A stretch of DNA of 64,000 nucleotides from a virus: positions 1 through 64,000 of the IMG/VR virus record IMGVR_UViG_3300027659_000011; one strand, given 5' to 3'. Positions 7,803-13,699 of the stretch are shown piece by piece. The notes under the pieces are model-generated. The model ran no database searches. It worked only from the letters and a program-made list of their open reading frames with translations, and was not told the origin of the DNA. The stretch's first letter is position 1, and every line of letters begins with the position of its first letter. The position numbers and the translations under genes were made by a program.

Positions 7803-8669
7803 ATGACTGCTAAAATTATTCAAGACAGTACAAGCAATGGCAAGCGTATTACTACACTTGAGTTGGAGTACCCACGCTTTATTCATGCTGAACTGCTTAC
7901 TCACCGACAGTTCTCCCGTAACTCAGCGTCATCAAGAGCTATTCCTGTTGAGCGCATGATGGACTTATTAGACACTCAACTTGCAGTTCCTTGCTACTGG
8001 GGCAAAAATCAACCAGGAATGGCTGCTCGTGAAGAAATCACAGAGATTGCCAGAGCAGAGACTACTTGGAAGTTTGCAGCTCAAACAGCCAAAGAGTTCA
8101 GCAAAGCTCTGTTAGACTTAGGTCTGCACAAGCAGATCGCTAATCGTGTAACTGAACCTTTTCAGACTATTAAAGTAGTACTCACAGCAACTGAGTTCGA
8201 TAACTGGTTTGAGCTACGTGCTCACCCAGATGCTCAGCCTGAGATAAACAAACTAGCACAAGAGATGCAAACAGCTTTAGCTGAGAGCACTCCCCTAGAA
8301 ATCCTACCTCACGACTGGCACGTGCCTTATGTTGACCGAGTGTGGCAAAATGGACAAATCTACTATCAAGTAGGTGGTGAACACTGCCAAATTACCCAAG
8401 CCAGAATGGTTTCAGCAAGCTGTTGCGCTCAGGTTTCATACCGCAGGCTAGACCACTCTTTAAACAAAGCCTTATCAATAGCTCAAAAGTTAGTAGCAGG
8501 CAGACCTTGGCACGCTAGTCCATTTGAACACCAAGCAAAGCCTATGCTGAGTACGCTGCAACCACACATCTGGGAAGCAGGCATGACTCACCAAGACCAT
8601 CATGGCAACTTTTGGAGTGGCAATTTCAAGGGATGGATTCAGCATCGTCAACTTTTAGAACAAGCCTGA
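7803..8669 (+). CDS. thyX: Flavin-dependent thymidylate synthase
   Basis: ELLTHRQFSRNSASSRA (RHRx7S-type motif), LRAHPDAQPEI, HASPFEH. Confidence 0.85.
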   Translation: MTAKIIQDSTSNGKRITTLELEYPRFIHAELLTHRQFSRNSASSRAIPVERMMDLLDTQLAVPCYWGKNQPGMAAREEITEIARAETTWKFAAQTAKEFSKALLDLGLHKQIANRVTEPFQTIKVVLTATEFDNWFELRAHPDAQPEINKLAQEMQTALAESTPLEILPHDWHVPYVDRVWQNGQIYYQVGGEHCQITQARMVSASCCAQVSYRRLDHSLNKALSIAQKLVAGRPWHASPFEHQAKPMLSTLQPHIWEAGMTHQDHHGNFWSGNFKGWIQHRQLLEQA

Positions 8670-8795
8670 CCCTAAACCGTTATGATCAAAGCATATTTTG
8701 AGAATGTGTCCGTATTTTACCTTATCGAGAACACGAGAATTTCAATTCGACACCTGATAAAGTTGTGTATTTTTAGCTCTGCACTGAAAAACAGT

Positions 8796-8824
8796 TGACT
8801 TTTTACAAAAAATGTGATACAATC
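8796..8824 (+). promoter_or_regulatory. Sigma70-type promoter for the D2/D3-like genes
   Basis: TTGACT-17-TACAAT. Confidence 0.65.
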
Positions 8825-8850
8825 AGTGTATATTAAAACAAGATGATACA

Positions 8851-8949
8851 CAGGGGACTCAACCAAGATGAGAAAACCACTGCGTAACGGGGTCAGAGGA
8901 GGCACAAGCAGTGTGAGTTTTCTCTGATCTTGCAGTTGAGGGTCCCCTG
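8851..8949 (+). other. ~100-nt long imperfect hairpin in the 5' leader of the D2-like gene
   Basis: CAGGGGA/TCCCCTG, CTCAAC/GTTGAG, CAAGAT/ATCTTG, GAGAAAAC/GTTTTCTC and CACTGC/GCAGTG nested complementary blocks. Confidence 0.75.
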
Positions 8950-8982
8950 AGCTAAATAGGGTAAATCCCATTATAAAAGCAA

Positions 8983-9789
8983 ATGAAAACATTTAAACCT
9001 GAATTTTATCAAACCGAATCCCTAAAAAGAATCTTTAAACCCATGACCATCCCTGTAATCCCCCGCAACCGAAAAAAGGAGTTGCGATCTTGGCCCATTG
9101 AACAGTTTGCCACAGGCACTGAGCCTGAACTTGCTCGCCTTGCCGAGCATCTTGCCCTACACAAAGAATCCGAGTGGTTCTTAGATCAGCTGCTACACCA
9201 GTTTGGTGGTTGGAAGCTGATCTGGAACGGAGACTTAATTGACTGTTTAGCCACAGTAAAACACAATGTGGTCAGTGACTTTGATCGTGGTTGTTGGCAG
9301 CTGGCTTGTAGAACTACTAGATCAAAGTTGGTTGCTAGACAAATAGACCAACCTAACTTCAGCTCTCTGGTACCACTTATCTTAGCTGGTGTTAAGCGTT
9401 ATCAGGAAGTTGCCTATAGTTCATGGGACGCAGCTACCGCAGAGTGTGTAATGCCCAGAGACTTATGGGAAGCTACTCGTGTTAGCTGTGATCTTGATAG
9501 CGAGGAACTGTTGCAGCTGAGGGTCAAGGGTTTGCAAGTTCAAACAGGAGCTCGTGCAGGTACTAGTCGTGACCCTAAATCGAGCTGGCAGTTGTATGGT
9601 ATAGCAGACTCAGAGCTTGGCAGGTTACCTAAACTGGCTCAAGTAATGTATGCACAGATCTGGGTAGCTCATCCAGACTTAAGACATAGGGACATGATCC
9701 TAGACCCCGAAAACTGGGATACAATGCCCGAACCTTTAATTAAAACCGATGTAGTAACTAAGTGGACAGCAATGCCTTGGGAACAGTAA
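8983..9789 (+). CDS. T5 D2-like DNA-binding protein
   Basis: SSLVPLIL...YSSW and QIWVAHP..R..MILDP.NWD.MPEPL recalled from T5-like D2; followed by a D3-like gene. Confidence 0.65.
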   Translation: MKTFKPEFYQTESLKRIFKPMTIPVIPRNRKKELRSWPIEQFATGTEPELARLAEHLALHKESEWFLDQLLHQFGGWKLIWNGDLIDCLATVKHNVVSDFDRGCWQLACRTTRSKLVARQIDQPNFSSLVPLILAGVKRYQEVAYSSWDAATAECVMPRDLWEATRVSCDLDSEELLQLRVKGLQVQTGARAGTSRDPKSSWQLYGIADSELGRLPKLAQVMYAQIWVAHPDLRHRDMILDPENWDTMPEPLIKTDVVTKWTAMPWEQ

Positions 9790-9790
9790 A

Positions 9791-10093
9791 ATGAAATACG
9801 ATCAGGAAATAACAGAAAAATTAAAAAGAGAATATCTAGCAGGAGTACCTGTGAGTACCTTAGCTGAGGGTCTGGGCGTACCCGACAGGTCGGTCATCGC
9901 TAAGCTATCGAGTCTGGGCGTGTACAAAAAGAAGGAGTACCTCACAAAAAGAGGTGAACTACCAGTCAAGAAGGAAGAGTATATTGAGCGTATTGCCAAG
10001 CTCCTGGACGTAAATTCAGACATGCTGGAGTCGCTGGAGAAGGTAAACAAGAGCGTTCTTGCCCTAATTGAAAAGAAACTGACCCCAAATTGA
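9791..10093 (+). CDS. T5 D3/A2-family HTH DNA-binding protein
   Basis: LAEGLGVPDRSVIAKLSSLGVY...SLEKVNK; homologous to three - strand paralogues. Confidence 0.7.
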   Translation: MKYDQEITEKLKREYLAGVPVSTLAEGLGVPDRSVIAKLSSLGVYKKKEYLTKRGELPVKKEEYIERIAKLLDVNSDMLESLEKVNKSVLALIEKKLTPN

Positions 10094-10150
10094 CCCTAAA
10101 CTGCGCCAGACTACGCTGTCAGGGCACTTAAAATCAGACTATGTCCCCAT

Positions 10151-10184
10151 AGCCACTTATTTCTCGGAATAAGTGGCTTTTTTT
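10151..10184 (+). terminator. Rho-independent terminator
   Basis: AGCCACTTATT-loop-AATAAGTGGCT followed by a T tract. Confidence 0.8.
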
Positions 10185-10297
10185 CGTCTGATTGCAGCAA
10201 ACGCCGAAATTTCTTGCTATAAGTGCAATTAAGTGAATTTGGCCCTGTTTGGCGTGGGTTCGGCTCAGTTGAGGGTCAGAGTGCTTAAAATTCCCAC

Positions 10298-10327
10298 TTG
10301 ACAATGCTTTCAGCACTATGGTATAAT
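10298..10327 (+). promoter_or_regulatory. Sigma70-type promoter with no downstream ORF
   Basis: TTGACA-18-TATAAT with extended TG, followed by TGGCGC. Confidence 0.6.
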
Positions 10328-10380
10328 TGGCGCCAGCACTATGGTGGCAGGCGCAGAATTAAGAGGTGAATCGCACAGAC

Positions 10381-10423
10381 AAACAAAAGCCCCATGAGGG
10401 CATGACTCCTCTGGGGCGTTTTG
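10381..10423 (-). terminator. Terminator of the candidate ncRNA
   Basis: - strand GCCCCAGAGG...CCTCATGGGGC followed by TTTTGTTT. Confidence 0.6.
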
Positions 10424-10816
10424 AATAAGACTAGTGGTGAACGCTACTAGATGACGAGTACTCACGATTTTTCACTATTACCGTAGTTCTGGTCTTGTTC
10501 AAGGACAACTGTCTAGGGTCGGAGGAAATACTGGTCTCTTATTTTTAACCTGCTCAAAACAGGAATTTCATCGTACCGGTCTAGGACCGCAGTAGCTTGA
10601 GATGGCGAAGTTTTTAGGATACTACAATCCATCCTTTTAGGCTGGACTAGCCGCTTCCGTATCGAGGTTGCATCTCGGAACCAAATTTAAGCCTCTGGCA
10701 CAGGGCTCCCAGATTGTGATCGCCATGCCTTAAAATAGTTGGGGGCTACGTAAAAGGTGGGTGGGAGATCACAAACAAAATAAACTCTACTCGGGGTCAA
10801 ATCCTTTTGAGTTTAT
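10381..10816 (-). ncRNA. Candidate ~430-nt structured non-coding RNA, class unknown
   Basis: Consensus promoter upstream, terminator hairpin plus U tract at the end, no ORF of 60 aa or more, about ten stem-loops, GC-richer than flanks. Confidence 0.55.
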
Positions 10817-10821
10817 AAGTA

Positions 10822-10850
10822 ATTATATCAGATTTTGATATAAGAGTCAA
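10822..10850 (-). promoter_or_regulatory. Sigma70 promoter of the candidate ncRNA
   Basis: - strand TTGACT-17-TATAAT. Confidence 0.75.
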
Positions 10851-10878
10851 GTCCGTAAACTTGACCCTAAACTGCCGA

Positions 10879-11190
10879 TCAGCGGACAGCTTCCAAAATC
10901 TTCGCCAAGGCGGTCTTGTTGGCTTTGGTCAAGCTCTCGGTCTCTGCTTCAGTCAAGAGCAAGATAGCAGCAATTTCGTCAGCCACAAAATCTTTCTTAA
11001 CAGGCTTCTCGCCAGTCTTAGAGACATAGCTCTTAGCCTTGTAGACACCTTCACGGCTCAACTTAGCTACCACTGAGCGCACTGACTTACCCACAGTTTC
11101 TGCAATTGCCTCAACTGCAACGCCTGCTTGGTAATCAGCAACCATAGCAGCAGTTTGCTCTGGTGTGTAATTCACAGTTTTCTTTTCCAT
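10879..11190 (-). CDS. T5 A2/D3-family DNA-binding protein, paralogue 1
   Basis: KTVNYT.EQT..MV.DY...GKSVRSVVAKLSREGVY...SLTKANK; AAGGA RBS before ATG 11190. Confidence 0.75.
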   Translation of the reverse strand: MEKKTVNYTPEQTAAMVADYQAGVAVEAIAETVGKSVRSVVAKLSREGVYKAKSYVSKTGEKPVKKDFVADEIAAILLLTEAETESLTKANKTALAKILEAVR

Positions 11191-11233
11191 TTTGGTTTCC
11201 TTTGGGTGGTGTGTTGTTTGTTTCAATAAAGTA

Positions 11234-11262
11234 ATTATACAGAATTAGGCAGGGAGAGTCAA
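11234..11262 (-). promoter_or_regulatory. Sigma70 promoter (second tandem promoter at 11319-11347)
   Basis: TTGACT-17-TATAAT; upstream TTGATT-17-TATAAT. Confidence 0.7.
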
Positions 11263-11363
11263 ATTAATAATTTTGATTGTCTTGATGAGATTGTGTCCCT
11301 CTCTGTGTCTAAGCCTATATTATACTGGAAAAGCTTGCGGCAATCAACAGCAGGTTTTTGCAC

Positions 11364-11642
11364 TTGACAAACGCTTGTGTGTCGTGGTATAATTGGCGCA
11401 GACACTACCTCAATAAAAATACATTTGACACTACCTTTTCCACTATGGCGCAAATTTCACAATGTCTTTTCCACTATGGCGCCCTATCGGGCGTAAGTAA
11501 GTGCTCACTTCGCCAAAAGTTAGTGAGTGCTCACTTCGCACCAAGTTAGTGAGCGCCTACTTCAATTTATCTGGTCGCTTAAAGCAACCGTTGTTTTTTT
11601 GCAACAAAATTTTGGCGCCCGAAGTGAGTACTCACTTCGGTA
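11364..11642. repeat. Repeat module 1: + strand promoter, CACTATGGCGC repeats, four AAGTGAGTRCTCACTT-type palindromes, GTCGCTTAAAGCAAC palindrome
   Basis: Perfect 22-bp palindrome CCGAAGTGAGTACTCACTTCGG at 11619-11640; 11574-11643 nearly identical to 13371-13440. Confidence 0.85.
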
Positions 11643-11653
11643 ATTTATTATAA

Positions 11654-11866
11654 TTAATTAATCAAGGCATTATGTGGAATATATACGCTTTGAGTAACAT
11701 AATTTATTTGCCAATTATAATGAGTAAATATTTCATAATCATAATCGCCCTCAAAAGATAATATATAATCAGCGCACCGATTAACTACAAATGGGTGAAT
11801 TTCTTGAATAGTTAATCCCTGATAATCTCTGAGATTAAGTTTCATTTCTTTGAATGTTACTATCAT
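11654..11866 (-). CDS. Hypothetical protein
   Basis: 70 aa; GGAGG RBS; end of a - strand operon. Confidence 0.6.
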   Translation of the reverse strand: MIVTFKEMKLNLRDYQGLTIQEIHPFVVNRCADYILSFEGDYDYEIFTHYNWQINYVTQSVYIPHNALIN

Positions 11867-12000
11867 TATTTACCCTCCATAAAATCTTTGTATTCTTTTC
11901 TATTAACTTCCCAAAATTGAGATAATGGGTAGTTAGAGAATGTCCAATCCAATAAAGCAATAATCGGAAAGAAAATAGTTACTAATATTTTACCAAGCAT
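11866..12000 (-). CDS. Small membrane protein, 44 aa (not in ORF track)
   Basis: MLGKILVTIFFPIIALLDW...; TAATG junction with the next gene. Confidence 0.5.
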   Translation of the reverse strand: MLGKILVTIFFPIIALLDWTFSNYPLSQFWEVNRKEYKDFMEGK

Positions 12001-12223
12001 TATATATCCCCAATATGTTAGCCAAAAAGAATGTGCCATTTAAAACAGTTAATGATTTGTCTTTACGAATAAATCCAACTATTAACCAAGATAATGAGCC
12101 AATAATAAATGCCAGATAACCGACAAATATAATCTGTGATGCAACTAAAAATGCACCGATAATGCTTGATATAGTCCCAACCCATGAAACTGTATTTATT
12201 AAATTAATAAGTTTAAAAATCAT
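11990..12223 (-). CDS. Small three-helix membrane protein (PnuC/PQ-loop-like)
   Basis: SWVGTISSIIGAFLVA...W...N..F..AN..G. Confidence 0.55.
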   Translation of the reverse strand: MIFKLINLINTVSWVGTISSIIGAFLVASQIIFVGYLAFIIGSLSWLIVGFIRKDKSLTVLNGTFFLANILGIYNAW

Positions 12224-12597
12224 CTTTTTATTTCCATTGTGTGATAAACATCAGGAGATAATCCATATTGTAACATTAACATTTTCCAGTTATTACCATG
12301 ACCACATTTTGCTTCTGATAATCCAAACAAATTATAATCTGCTTGGTGGATTATCTCATGTGGCAATATAACCTTAGTCATATTATGTGCATAATCAGGA
12401 GAATGAATAAAGAATTTATAACCTAATTCAACTGTATTATTTTCTTGATGGCACATCCCAGCATTACGCCATAATCTACCATTAATTTCTATATTAGGTG
12501 GATTATAGCGAGTTAATCGGGGATATAATTCGCAAAGATTATCCCAGATAATCAGAGTCTGATTATTTAATAAATTTGAGAGCTTTTTTCTATCCAT
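12220..12597 (-). CDS. SprT-like zinc metalloprotease
   Basis: RLWRNAG, ILPHEIIH (HExxH), GHGNNWK. Confidence 0.8.
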   Translation of the reverse strand: MDRKKLSNLLNNQTLIIWDNLCELYPRLTRYNPPNIEINGRLWRNAGMCHQENNTVELGYKFFIHSPDYAHNMTKVILPHEIIHQADYNLFGLSEAKCGHGNNWKMLMLQYGLSPDVYHTMEIKR

Positions 12598-12638
12598 ACC
12601 GAGATTATACACAATTCACCCTTGCTTGCAACTATTTT

Positions 12639-12790
12639 TTGAAAACCAAAGTATACATTCGCCAAAATACAACATAGGTGTTTACCCTTGTGGTATTTAT
12701 GCAACGGTCGCTTGAAGCGACCGTTGTTTTTTTGCAACAAAAAAAAAGCCCTGATTAATCAGGGCTTTTCAATAGGGGTAAACCCCTATT
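12639..12790. repeat. Repeat module 2 with bidirectional terminator
   Basis: AAAATACAACATAGGTGTTTA; 25-bp inverted repeat CAACGGTCGCTTGAAGCGACCGTTG (12702-12726); hairpin AAAAGCCCTGATTAATCAGGGCTTTT (12744-12769); ATAGGGGTAAACCCCTAT. Confidence 0.8.
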
Positions 12791-12793
12791 TAC

Positions 12794-13120
12794 TCAAATT
12801 GGTTTTGAGTTAGCCAAAGCATCAAAAATTGCTTTTAGAGCATTTTTGTTTGCTTTTGTCAGAGAATCAACGTCATTTTCTGACAATCGGAGAATTGCAC
12901 CGATTGCGTCTGCGTGAACGTCTTTTTTAACTGGCTTTTCACCAGTTTTGGAAACGTAAGTTTTAGCTTTATAAACGCCCTCTCGGGAGAGTTTAGCCAC
13001 AACTGACCGAACAGACTTGCCCAAATTTTCGGCAATAGAATCCACAGACACGCCCGATGTATAATCGGACACCATAGCAGAGGTTTGCTCTGCTGTATAA
13101 TTTACAGTTTTCGCTGTCAT
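12794..13120 (-). CDS. T5 A2/D3-family DNA-binding protein, paralogue 2
   Basis: MTAKTVNYTAEQT...GKSVRSVVAKLSREGVYKAKTYVSKTGEKPVKKD. Confidence 0.8.
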   Translation of the reverse strand: MTAKTVNYTAEQTSAMVSDYTSGVSVDSIAENLGKSVRSVVAKLSREGVYKAKTYVSKTGEKPVKKDVHADAIGAILRLSENDVDSLTKANKNALKAIFDALANSKPI

Positions 13121-13159
13121 TTTAAAACCCTTTCAAGGTTAGTGAGTGAAGAAGTCTCT

Positions 13160-13440
13160 ATTATAGCGGAAAATCAAGAATTGTCAAAAACATATTTTTT
13201 GTGGGGTTATTTGTTGTATTTGCGTCAAATAGGGAAAACCCCTATTGACGGGGTGCAAAATTATGTGGTATAATTTTGGCGCAAAATTGAATACCTGAGT
13301 ATTCAAAAAATCTATATGCACAAAAACCCTATTTTTGTATATATCTATATTATGTGGTAAAAAAGCAACAGTCGCTTAAAGCAACCGTTGTTTTTTTGCA
13401 ACAAAATTTTGGCGCCCGAAGTGAGTACTCACTTCGGTAA
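13160..13440. repeat. Repeat module 3: divergent promoters and palindromes
   Basis: - promoter 13160-13187; + promoter TTGACG-18-TATAAT 13245-13274; TTGAATACCTGAGTATTCAA 13287-13306; GTCGCTTAAAGCAAC 13371; CCGAAGTGAGTACTCACTTCGG 13416-13437. Confidence 0.85.
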
Positions 13441-13450
13441 GCCGATTATA

Positions 13451-13699
13451 TTATAATCGGGGTTTTATTTTATAATATAACATTACTAATAAGAAAACCA
13501 TATTAAGGGTATAATTAAATAATAATGGCATATCCATTTTAGGGAGAATATAAATTATTGTAAATATCTCTCCGAAAAACCAACATAATAGAAAACCCCA
13601 AGATAATCCCCGAGAATGTCCTGCTTTATGACATTCTATTGCTTGTGGTAATCCGCATATTGCGAATAATATTGAACCAATCCAACCTATTATTTCCAT
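13451..13699 (-). CDS. PQ-loop (SemiSWEET-like) membrane protein
   Basis: IGWIGSILFAICGLPQA...SRGLSWGFL...NY. Confidence 0.75.
   Translation of the reverse strand: MEIIGWIGSILFAICGLPQAIECHKAGHSRGLSWGFLLCWFFGEIFTIIYILPKMDMPLLFNYTLNMVFLLVMLYYKIKPRL

Follow-up and report, generated by a model that had tools for sequence, protein, structure and literature searches.

A probable non-coding RNA gene of about 436 nt with swapped structural modules in a tailed freshwater phage

The locus and its gene signals

The window analysed here is a stretch of 64,000 nucleotides (nt), the first half of the 128,412-bp genome record IMGVR_UViG_3300027659_000011 from IMG/VR, and the element under study is the interval 10816-10381 on its minus strand. 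This interval of about 436 nt is poor in open reading frames (ORFs) and lies between a sigma-70-type promoter and an intrinsic terminator, with a gene for a protein of 115 amino acids (aa) upstream and an adjacent gene for a 268-aa protein. It is very probably a genuine non-coding RNA gene of a tailed freshwater phage of about 128 kb. A first-pass annotation, made from the sequence alone, had read it as an undescribed, independently promoted structured phage RNA, and this description has held, as the RNA is conserved, covarying, abundant and absent from Rfam 15. The interval also shows the generic features of a structured non-coding RNA gene: a promoter and a terminator of its own that are conserved, compensatory changes, and no conserved reading frame on the RNA strand.

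The promoter (Table 1), the lack of any ORF of at least 60 aa in 10381-10850 (the largest have 49, 39, 37 and 29 aa) and the GC hairpin with U tract that ends the interval had all been recognised in the first pass, and each was confirmed. The -35 and -10 hexamers are identical in all six aligned copies of the RNA, while the spacer is altered in the copies of the L002 type (see below). Since promoter-like sites as a class are not enriched here (17 in 8500-13500 against 12.7 +/- 4.1 expected), the support for this promoter comes from its conservation. Judging from the position of the -10 box, A 10816 is the likely start of the RNA, and the strong host-type promoter suggests that expression may be "very early", as first proposed. 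A terminator scan found an inner hairpin at 10401-10389 followed by TTTTGTTTGT, folding lengthens this hairpin to 10418-10389, and the terminator is unchanged in all copies. The G+C content is 45.4% in the RNA interval versus 36.7% in the genome, and the adjacent genes are likewise G+C-rich.

The convergent promoter noted in the first pass was also found, as a sequence, and is kept in the related loci L002 and L006; an antisense RNA is a possible, candidate product of it. The 13-mer TGACCCTAAACTG is enriched in the window, with 11 matches at up to two mismatches against 1.58 expected, 8 of the 11 lying in 8667-10874. The copy just upstream of the RNA promoter is likely to be a regulator-binding site. 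As a group, the 13-mers of 8667-10874 could be either regulator sites or iterons.

Table 1. Features of the RNA locus, of related loci, and of the metatranscriptome contigs placed on the locus (positions without a prefix refer to the window; depths are word depths).
Feature	Position	Strand	Description
Sigma-70-type promoter of the RNA	10850-10822	-	TTGACT-17-TATAAT, TG extension, consensus score 11/12
P1, 5' terminal hairpin (RNA nt 1-38)	10779..10816	-	Helices 1-2
P2, long three-part hairpin	10714..10774	-	C-rich apical loop (YCCCA conserved); first variable module, three alleles
Conserved core (RNA nt 104-269)	10548..10713	-	Hairpins P3-P8 and A-rich linkers; 22 of 168 columns differ between window and L002
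3' domain	10424..10543	-	Closed by AAUAAGA/UCUUAUU, contains CUAGU/ACUAG; second variable module, three alleles
Intrinsic terminator	10381..10418	-	Imperfect GC hairpin 10418-10389 and U tract 10388-10381
Convergent promoter	10298-10327	+	TTGACA-18-TATAAT, TG, 12/12; faces the RNA terminator
13-mer TGACCCTAAACTG, copy	10862..10874	+	11 nt upstream of the -35 of the RNA promoter
13-mer, second copy with one mismatch	10266..10278	-	19 nt upstream of the -35 of the convergent promoter
12-codon frame MAKFLGYYNPSF	10602-10640	+	Antisense to the invariant core; sole short frame whole in all four variants
Replaced module, P2	L258:118-180		Block swapped
Replaced module, 3' domain	L259:2946-3062		Block swapped
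L006-type RNA body, ORF-free, about 740 nt	L006:6385-7140; L265:4521-5468	+; -	Same frame of promoter, terminator and convergent promoter
Contigs of run X15	10409-10577; 10548-11286		Depth 1925; depth 784; versus 17 at 9734-10147 and 14.5 at 11781-12000
Contigs of run X17	10481-10577; 10548-10927		Depth 1137; depth 585; versus 20 at 10898-11299 and 3-7 in the flanks
Contig of run X19	10481-11282		Depth 358; versus 5 in the flank
Contigs of run X16	10080-10968		Depth about 21, flat

Homologues and distribution

Relatives of the upstream 115-aa protein were collected from viral contigs (279 confirmed, 79 loci kept), and the RNA lies downstream of the family gene in one of the 79 loci, L002, with 75% identity over about 590 nt. 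A gapped motif scan of a metagenome collection returned five contigs, all five with full-length RNA matches. The RNA homologues therefore comprise one other viral contig and five metagenome contigs, which make four distinct variants with the window: the window type (including L261, at 99.8% identity), L258, L259, and the L002 type (with L260, which has the same sequence, and L262, one base apart). All four variants come from freshwater samples.

A whole-record search, which took 45 of 91 related loci, found the RNA body in one of 44 related viral records and in none of the five that are at least 90% complete. Four scans of the viral collection with core motifs of 14 to 24 bases gave the L002 contig as the sole true homologue, a terminator-pattern scan of the same collection returned only the L002 and L006 contigs, and pattern scanning of 185,579 prokaryote genomes yielded no RNA homologue; exact-motif scans are blind to family members that differ within the motifs. 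The 79 and 99 stretches matched by two 14-mers proved to be chance matches in an nhmmer check of 257 loci. No match to 10100-11300 was found by blastn among 50,697 phage records. A literature search returned no paper on this RNA; a fragment of it may sit in the supplementary tables of PMC10690425, whose candidates are 29-151 nt long and had to occur in at least three unique IMG/VR regions. On these searches the RNA gene is accessory and does not belong to the core genes.

Nucleotide identity of the RNA between the window and L002 is 75%, that of the adjacent 268-aa protein in amino acids 49%, and this comparison indicates that the RNA is either strongly constrained or recently exchanged. The 268-aa protein of the window is 56% identical to that of L006, and the RNA body is common to L002 only. 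Since the RNA is shared with L002 despite a 268-aa protein that is nearer to L006, the region is mosaic.

Structure and covariation of the RNA

Ten helices were drawn by hand from the sequences and counted on the six-row alignment. Bases pair in 98.3% of 353 cells, and 11 of 60 pairs (19 cells) change on both sides among the four variants, which is covariation of the kind that the first-pass annotation had proposed to check. None of 500 shuffles reached these pairing and change values, and when the partners were slid by 1-3 columns as a control, 0-2 both-sided pairs and 33-48% paired cells were obtained. G-U is used by 12 pairs in some copy; because these pairs would read A-C on the plus strand, the fold belongs to the minus-strand RNA.

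Hairpin P1 (13 pairs) is paired in 100% of the cells, with one C-G to A-U change and four one-sided changes, and in P2 (helices 3-5) 8 of 19 pairs are altered on both sides across the three alleles. Within the core, P7 changes from CGGUC/GACCG to CAGUC/GACUG in L259 and to CAGCU/AGCUG in L002, P4 has a U-A to C-G change, P5, P6 and P8 never vary, and P3 departs only by one lost pair in L258. The stem that closes the 3' domain in the window has a possible counterpart, AACAGAA/UUCUGUU, in L002, and the unrelated 3' module of L259 can close with AAAUU.GCA/UGC.AAUUU, a stem read from the sequence and absent from the minimum-energy fold of L259. The inner hairpin CUAGU/ACUAG, also read from the sequences, becomes CUAGA/UCUAG. 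The folding z-score of the 5' two-hairpin domain (P1 and P2) is -2.36, -3.53 and -3.09 in three variants, and that of the whole L002 copy is -2.46.

These data sort the ten stems listed in the first pass. Six have changes that preserve pairing, namely AUAAACUC/GAGUUUAU, UUGUGAUC/GAUCACAA, CGGUC/GACCG, AAUAAGA/UCUUAUU, CUAGU/ACUAG and CCUU/AAGG, the last as part of the long hairpin. Three, GGCU/AGCC, AGGAU/AUCCU and CCUG/CAGG, never vary and carry no information. Two lose a pair each: UCUGG/CCAGA in L258, and UUCCG/CGGAA in L002. The latter stem competes with the hairpin UUUG-GUUC-CGAG, in which a U-A pair has become C-G. Pairing of the YCCCA loop of P2 with an invariant UGGGAG of the core is possible on paper but is not claimed, since covariation is absent and the window carries a mismatch. 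The 3' domain also contains GTGAGTACTCGT (10463-10452, minus strand), lost in the L002 allele, which resembles a palindrome family, (A/C)GTGAGT(A/G)CTCACTT, that recurs at 11495, 11522, 11620 and 13417.

Coding potential

The aligned 491-nt stretch of the window has nine frames of at least 12 codons, five on the RNA strand and four on the opposite one. Eight of the nine lose their start, shift frame or change their stop in one variant or more, and indels break all five on the RNA strand. The frame that stays whole (10602-10640) has no evident ribosome-binding site, as judged by eye with no scan run, and its differences among variants are all amino-acid-changing. An indel close to its upstream side puts the most conserved 30-nt block into another frame in L002 than in the window. 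As judged from these frames, the RNA interval is non-coding.

Expression in metatranscriptomes

At least half of the sampled words of 10250-11300 were found in 20 public runs, six of which are metatranscriptomes, and the contigs of four of these were placed on 9500-12000. The RNA is highly abundant in the metatranscriptome contigs: in three runs, word depth over 10409-11286 is 358-1925 versus 3-17 for the flanking genes. The flanks serve as a control of silent stretches, so DNA carry-over fails to explain the 20- to 100-fold excess. The step from 585 to 20 in X17, which is a comparison of coarse depths, hints that the RNA's own promoter dominates. The three high-depth runs carry three study codes and possibly belong to one campaign. 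No contig of X15, X17 or X19 lies over 10172-10339, and this uncovered stretch says nothing on antisense RNA. One X15 contig has an adapter loose end at 10409, inside the terminator hairpin, possibly a favoured fragment end, from which we draw no conclusion.

A conserved frame with unrelated RNA bodies and swapped modules

Locus L006 belongs to a complete 123,962-bp phage with terminal repeats and has the same gene order as the window: a helix-turn-helix (HTH) gene, the 16-nt block GCAGTTTAGGGTCAAG, a promoter, some 740 nt in which no ORF reaches 70 aa, a terminator, a convergent promoter, GGCGCC and a convergent 100-aa gene. The block precedes the RNA promoter in both loci, and the L006 RNA ends in a hairpin homologous to the window terminator, with the common stretch GGAGUCAUGCCC; GGAGTCATGCCC is also common to the two terminator hairpins. 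The flanks of the window and L006 agree at 56 of 86 positions and, downstream, at 98 of 129, but the RNA bodies are unrelated (local score 18 versus 19.6 +/- 2.1 for shuffles). Relatives of the L006 body, or modules shared with it, occur in L265, L267/L046, L040, L012, L043, L075 and L073. A T-arm/D-arm-like module in the L006 body matches the model of YrlA, the bacterial Y RNA, below threshold (33 bits, E 4.9e-5, in L006 and 30.1 bits in L265; gathering score 69), and these matches may serve as a lead only. Among ten checked loci out of 12 found through the 100-aa gene, five have a junction of at least 750 nt without an 80-aa ORF.

Between closely related copies, whole structural modules of the RNA are replaced. 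L258 and the window share 98.56% identity over 4789 nt, yet 21 of the 23 differences within the RNA fall in the 63 columns of P2. For L259 the identity is 95.7% over 3196 nt, and the 3' domain holds 82 of its 87 RNA differences. Each swapped module is bounded by its own closing stem, and the 3' module of L259 has no match among the other collected sequences. An origin of the P2 variation like that of diversity-generating retroelements was rejected, since by reading, with no count made, the substitutions are not adenine-specific.

Comparison with known RNA families

None of the 4227 models of Rfam 15 reached its gathering score anywhere in the window, and a permissive scan of 10100-11000 gave three chance matches only (E 1.8-5.6, 15-17 bits). 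Models of RNase P RNA had no match even at E <= 10, the YrlA model (RF02553) had no window match at E <= 10, and the GOLLD and ROOL models had none in the window. ARAGORN detected no transfer RNA (tRNA) or transfer-messenger RNA (tmRNA) in the window; elsewhere in the genome it found 12 tRNAs and a permuted tmRNA at 116.7-126.7 kb. ARAGORN thus works on this phage, which carries recognisable RNA genes, and the RNA studied here is not among them. These scans agree with the first-pass statement that hallmarks of tRNA, tmRNA and RNase P are lacking.

Several systems resemble the RNA in part. Like GOLLD and ROOL, it is an independent, structured, phage-borne RNA gene of several hundred nt with no assigned function. 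According to PMC5737381, GOLLD and ROOL are often found in prophages and often beside tRNA genes. In contrast to them, the window RNA lies about 106 kb from the tRNA cluster of the phage, matches neither model and has a very narrow distribution. Like the bacterial Y RNAs, it is an abundant structured RNA that could act by binding protein; however, it is four times longer than YrlA, does not match it, and TROVE and RtcB are missing from the records searched. The small stable RNAs of T4 and T5, whose role is unassigned, lie in tRNA clusters and are about 100-140 nt long. They are likewise non-coding RNAs of large lytic phages made by host polymerase, but the window RNA has about 436 nt and is far from the tRNAs. 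Like the ColE1 RNA II/RNA I pair, the locus has a long structured RNA with its own promoter, a convergent promoter that might give an antisense partner, and adjoining repeated DNA motifs; here, however, that promoter points at the 3' end and terminator of the RNA instead of its 5' end, and a relative has an unrelated body in its place.

Proposed function and alternatives

In the explanation that we prefer, host RNA polymerase would start at about 10816 at the strong sigma-70 promoter and stop near 10381 at the hairpin and U tract, with read-through from the upstream 115-aa gene probably contributing RNA. The transcript very probably folds into P1, the variable P2, a nearly invariant core of small hairpins, the variable 3' domain and the terminator. 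It would act in trans on a factor of the host or the phage, which would recognise the surface of the invariant core, while the peripheral helices would be struts open to exchange. We tentatively propose a protein-binding RNA, either a decoy or a scaffold, as its mode of action, because the core is invariant including its unpaired linkers and the peripheral helices keep shape and not sequence, and also because the RNA is very abundant and accessory, its modules are swapped and a sister cassette carries a tRNA-like module. The "protein decoy or anti-defence RNA" of the first pass is still our leading guess. Conserved folds in bacterial or phage RNAs of more than about 400 nt are rare, and unusual chemistry or large assemblies have emerged in several of the known cases. 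For the gene and the mechanism taken together as one blended claim, our confidence is evenly balanced.

Several observations weigh against this explanation. The folding comparison suggested in the first pass turned out negative, as the whole RNA is no more stable than its shuffles (z = -0.79, with 21 of 100 shuffles folding equally well), and a 133-nt piece of the core gives z = -0.76. The covariation draws on four real variants, two of the six rows being near-duplicates, and the structure was derived from the same sequences on which it was counted, which favours it; because the core hardly varies, its fold is putative. CsrB/RsmZ-type sponges have many GGA motifs, mostly in hairpin loops; in the RNA, GGA is not enriched (6 copies, with 5.48 +/- 2.06 in its shuffles). 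The phage and two relatives (G000, G001, G002) yielded neither a Ro (TROVE) nor an RtcB gene, the host genome being outside this search. Regarding expression, the profile of X16 is flat across the locus, and in X15 and X19 one contig bridges the upstream gene and the RNA, so that their signals are inseparable. The first-pass annotation had looked to metatranscriptomes for a discrete transcript: the depth over the locus is there, but the contigs have one depth each, with neither ends nor strand visible from which discreteness could be read.

We consider it improbable, yet worth weighing, that the RNA is a base-pairing regulator that blocks ribosome binding on host or phage mRNAs and is retargeted by its swapped modules. 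It would pair through exposed stretches, for which the P2 loop with YCCCA, the CCUCC of the 3' domain and the A-rich linkers are candidates. Three P2 alleles keep YCCCA and two alleles of the 3' domain keep CCUCCGA, the intrinsic terminator with U tail and the A-rich linkers resemble those of Hfq-dependent RNAs, and the modules are exchanged between near-identical genomes. However, a complementarity search of the whole phage genome, with host targets outside its reach, found nothing beyond chance (best 14 nt, E 0.17), P2 alters on both strands yet still pairs, which speaks for shape and not for a seed, and 436 nt with a near-invariant core of 166 nt is much larger than such regulators need. 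Clearly less probable is that we see mainly the structured 3' tail of the 115-aa gene mRNA, which would stabilise the message or be a by-product. No terminator was found between the stop of that gene (10879) and the RNA, and single contigs cover both (X15 10548-11286, X19 10481-11282). Against this stand the promoter that the RNA has for itself, with unchanging hexamers around a spacer that varies, the drop in X17 from depth 585 at 10548-10927 to 20 over the gene body at 10898-11299 (coarse contig depths), and the absence of the RNA downstream of the 115-aa family gene in 78 of 79 loci.

A feature of the DNA itself, such as a replication origin or control region with iteron-like 13-mers whose transcript merely opens or primes the DNA, is about as unlikely as the 3' tail. 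The enriched TGACCCTAAACTG has copies just upstream of both convergent promoters, gene orientation flips and the cumulative GC skew peaks at the locus, and in L006 the frame but not the body is conserved. Nevertheless, the body shared with L002 is conserved through compensatory changes and G-U pairs that are sensible only in a minus-strand RNA, the 13-mers lie outside the transcribed body, and the adjoining 268-aa protein is not recognised as a replication initiator by any Pfam, PHROGs or Atlas family. A chance arrangement or a small-protein gene seems very improbable indeed: the folding z-score of the whole RNA and the 12-codon opposite-strand frame that is whole in four variants would fit it, but conservation, covariation and abundance argue against chance, and that frame lies in the invariant core, where its lack of an evident ribosome-binding site and its exclusively amino-acid-changing differences argue against a peptide.

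Returning to the protein-binding RNA, its wider setting may be a swappable cassette in a group of large freshwater phages, in which a fixed frame of regulator motif, strong promoter, common terminator and convergent promoter carries unrelated, highly expressed structured RNAs, of about 436 nt in some phages and, in others, of about 740 nt and with a tRNA-like module. That this cassette is an RNA-only accessory anti-defence locus of lytic phages is a speculative extension to which we give little weight. Its RNAs would serve counter-defence as decoys, either by mimicking a host RNA or by sequestering a host nuclease or sensor, because module exchange at 96-99% identity is the pattern of an arms race. 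Cassette and module exchange hint at accessory RNA genes in phages whose evolution resembles that of genes for anti-defence proteins. Since its gene signals are clear, its helices covary and natural communities contain it in very high abundance, this orphan RNA is ready for the bench, and the unrelated RNAs in the frame of sister phages, together with module exchange, make its biology testable by swapping bodies or modules.

Neighbouring genes, phage and host

Three paralogous small HTH proteins flank the RNA and nearby cassettes, at 9791-10093 (plus strand), 10879-11226 (minus) and 12794-13120 (minus). The family is very large in uncultured phages, with 2259 matches at E <= 1e-10, and is precomputed as PF26822, whereas tblastn gave no match for it among 50,697 records of cultured phages. 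The first pass had placed the RNA between D3-like and A2-like genes, which fails at the sequence level, as the flanking 115-aa protein is unmatched in those records at E <= 1e-3. For the 268-aa neighbour, no family turned up in Pfam, PHROGs or Atlas, and since it occurs alongside either RNA type it is no specific partner of the RNA.

The large terminase shares about 49% identity with its counterparts in phages of about 113 kb from Vibrio, Salmonella and Escherichia, which we take to be T5-like, and a distant T5-like affiliation of the phage is plausible. Its permuted tmRNA, outside the window at G000:C1:119473-119888 on the minus strand (L276:3500-3905), has the tag ANDSQFALAA and scores 112.5 bits with the Rfam model tmRNA_permuted and 107.8 bits with beta_tmRNA. 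The match to the betaproteobacterial permuted model suggests a betaproteobacterial host.

Other ORF-free units were observed near the RNA. Two more plus-strand promoters without a gene, of the form TTGAC(A/G)-18-TATAAT with TG and followed by GGCGC, drive the ORF-free units 11364-11645 and 13245-13440. These two units share an identical 70-nt end with two hairpins (11574-11643 = 13371-13440), and CACTATGG repeats lie downstream of the promoters at 10298 and 11364.

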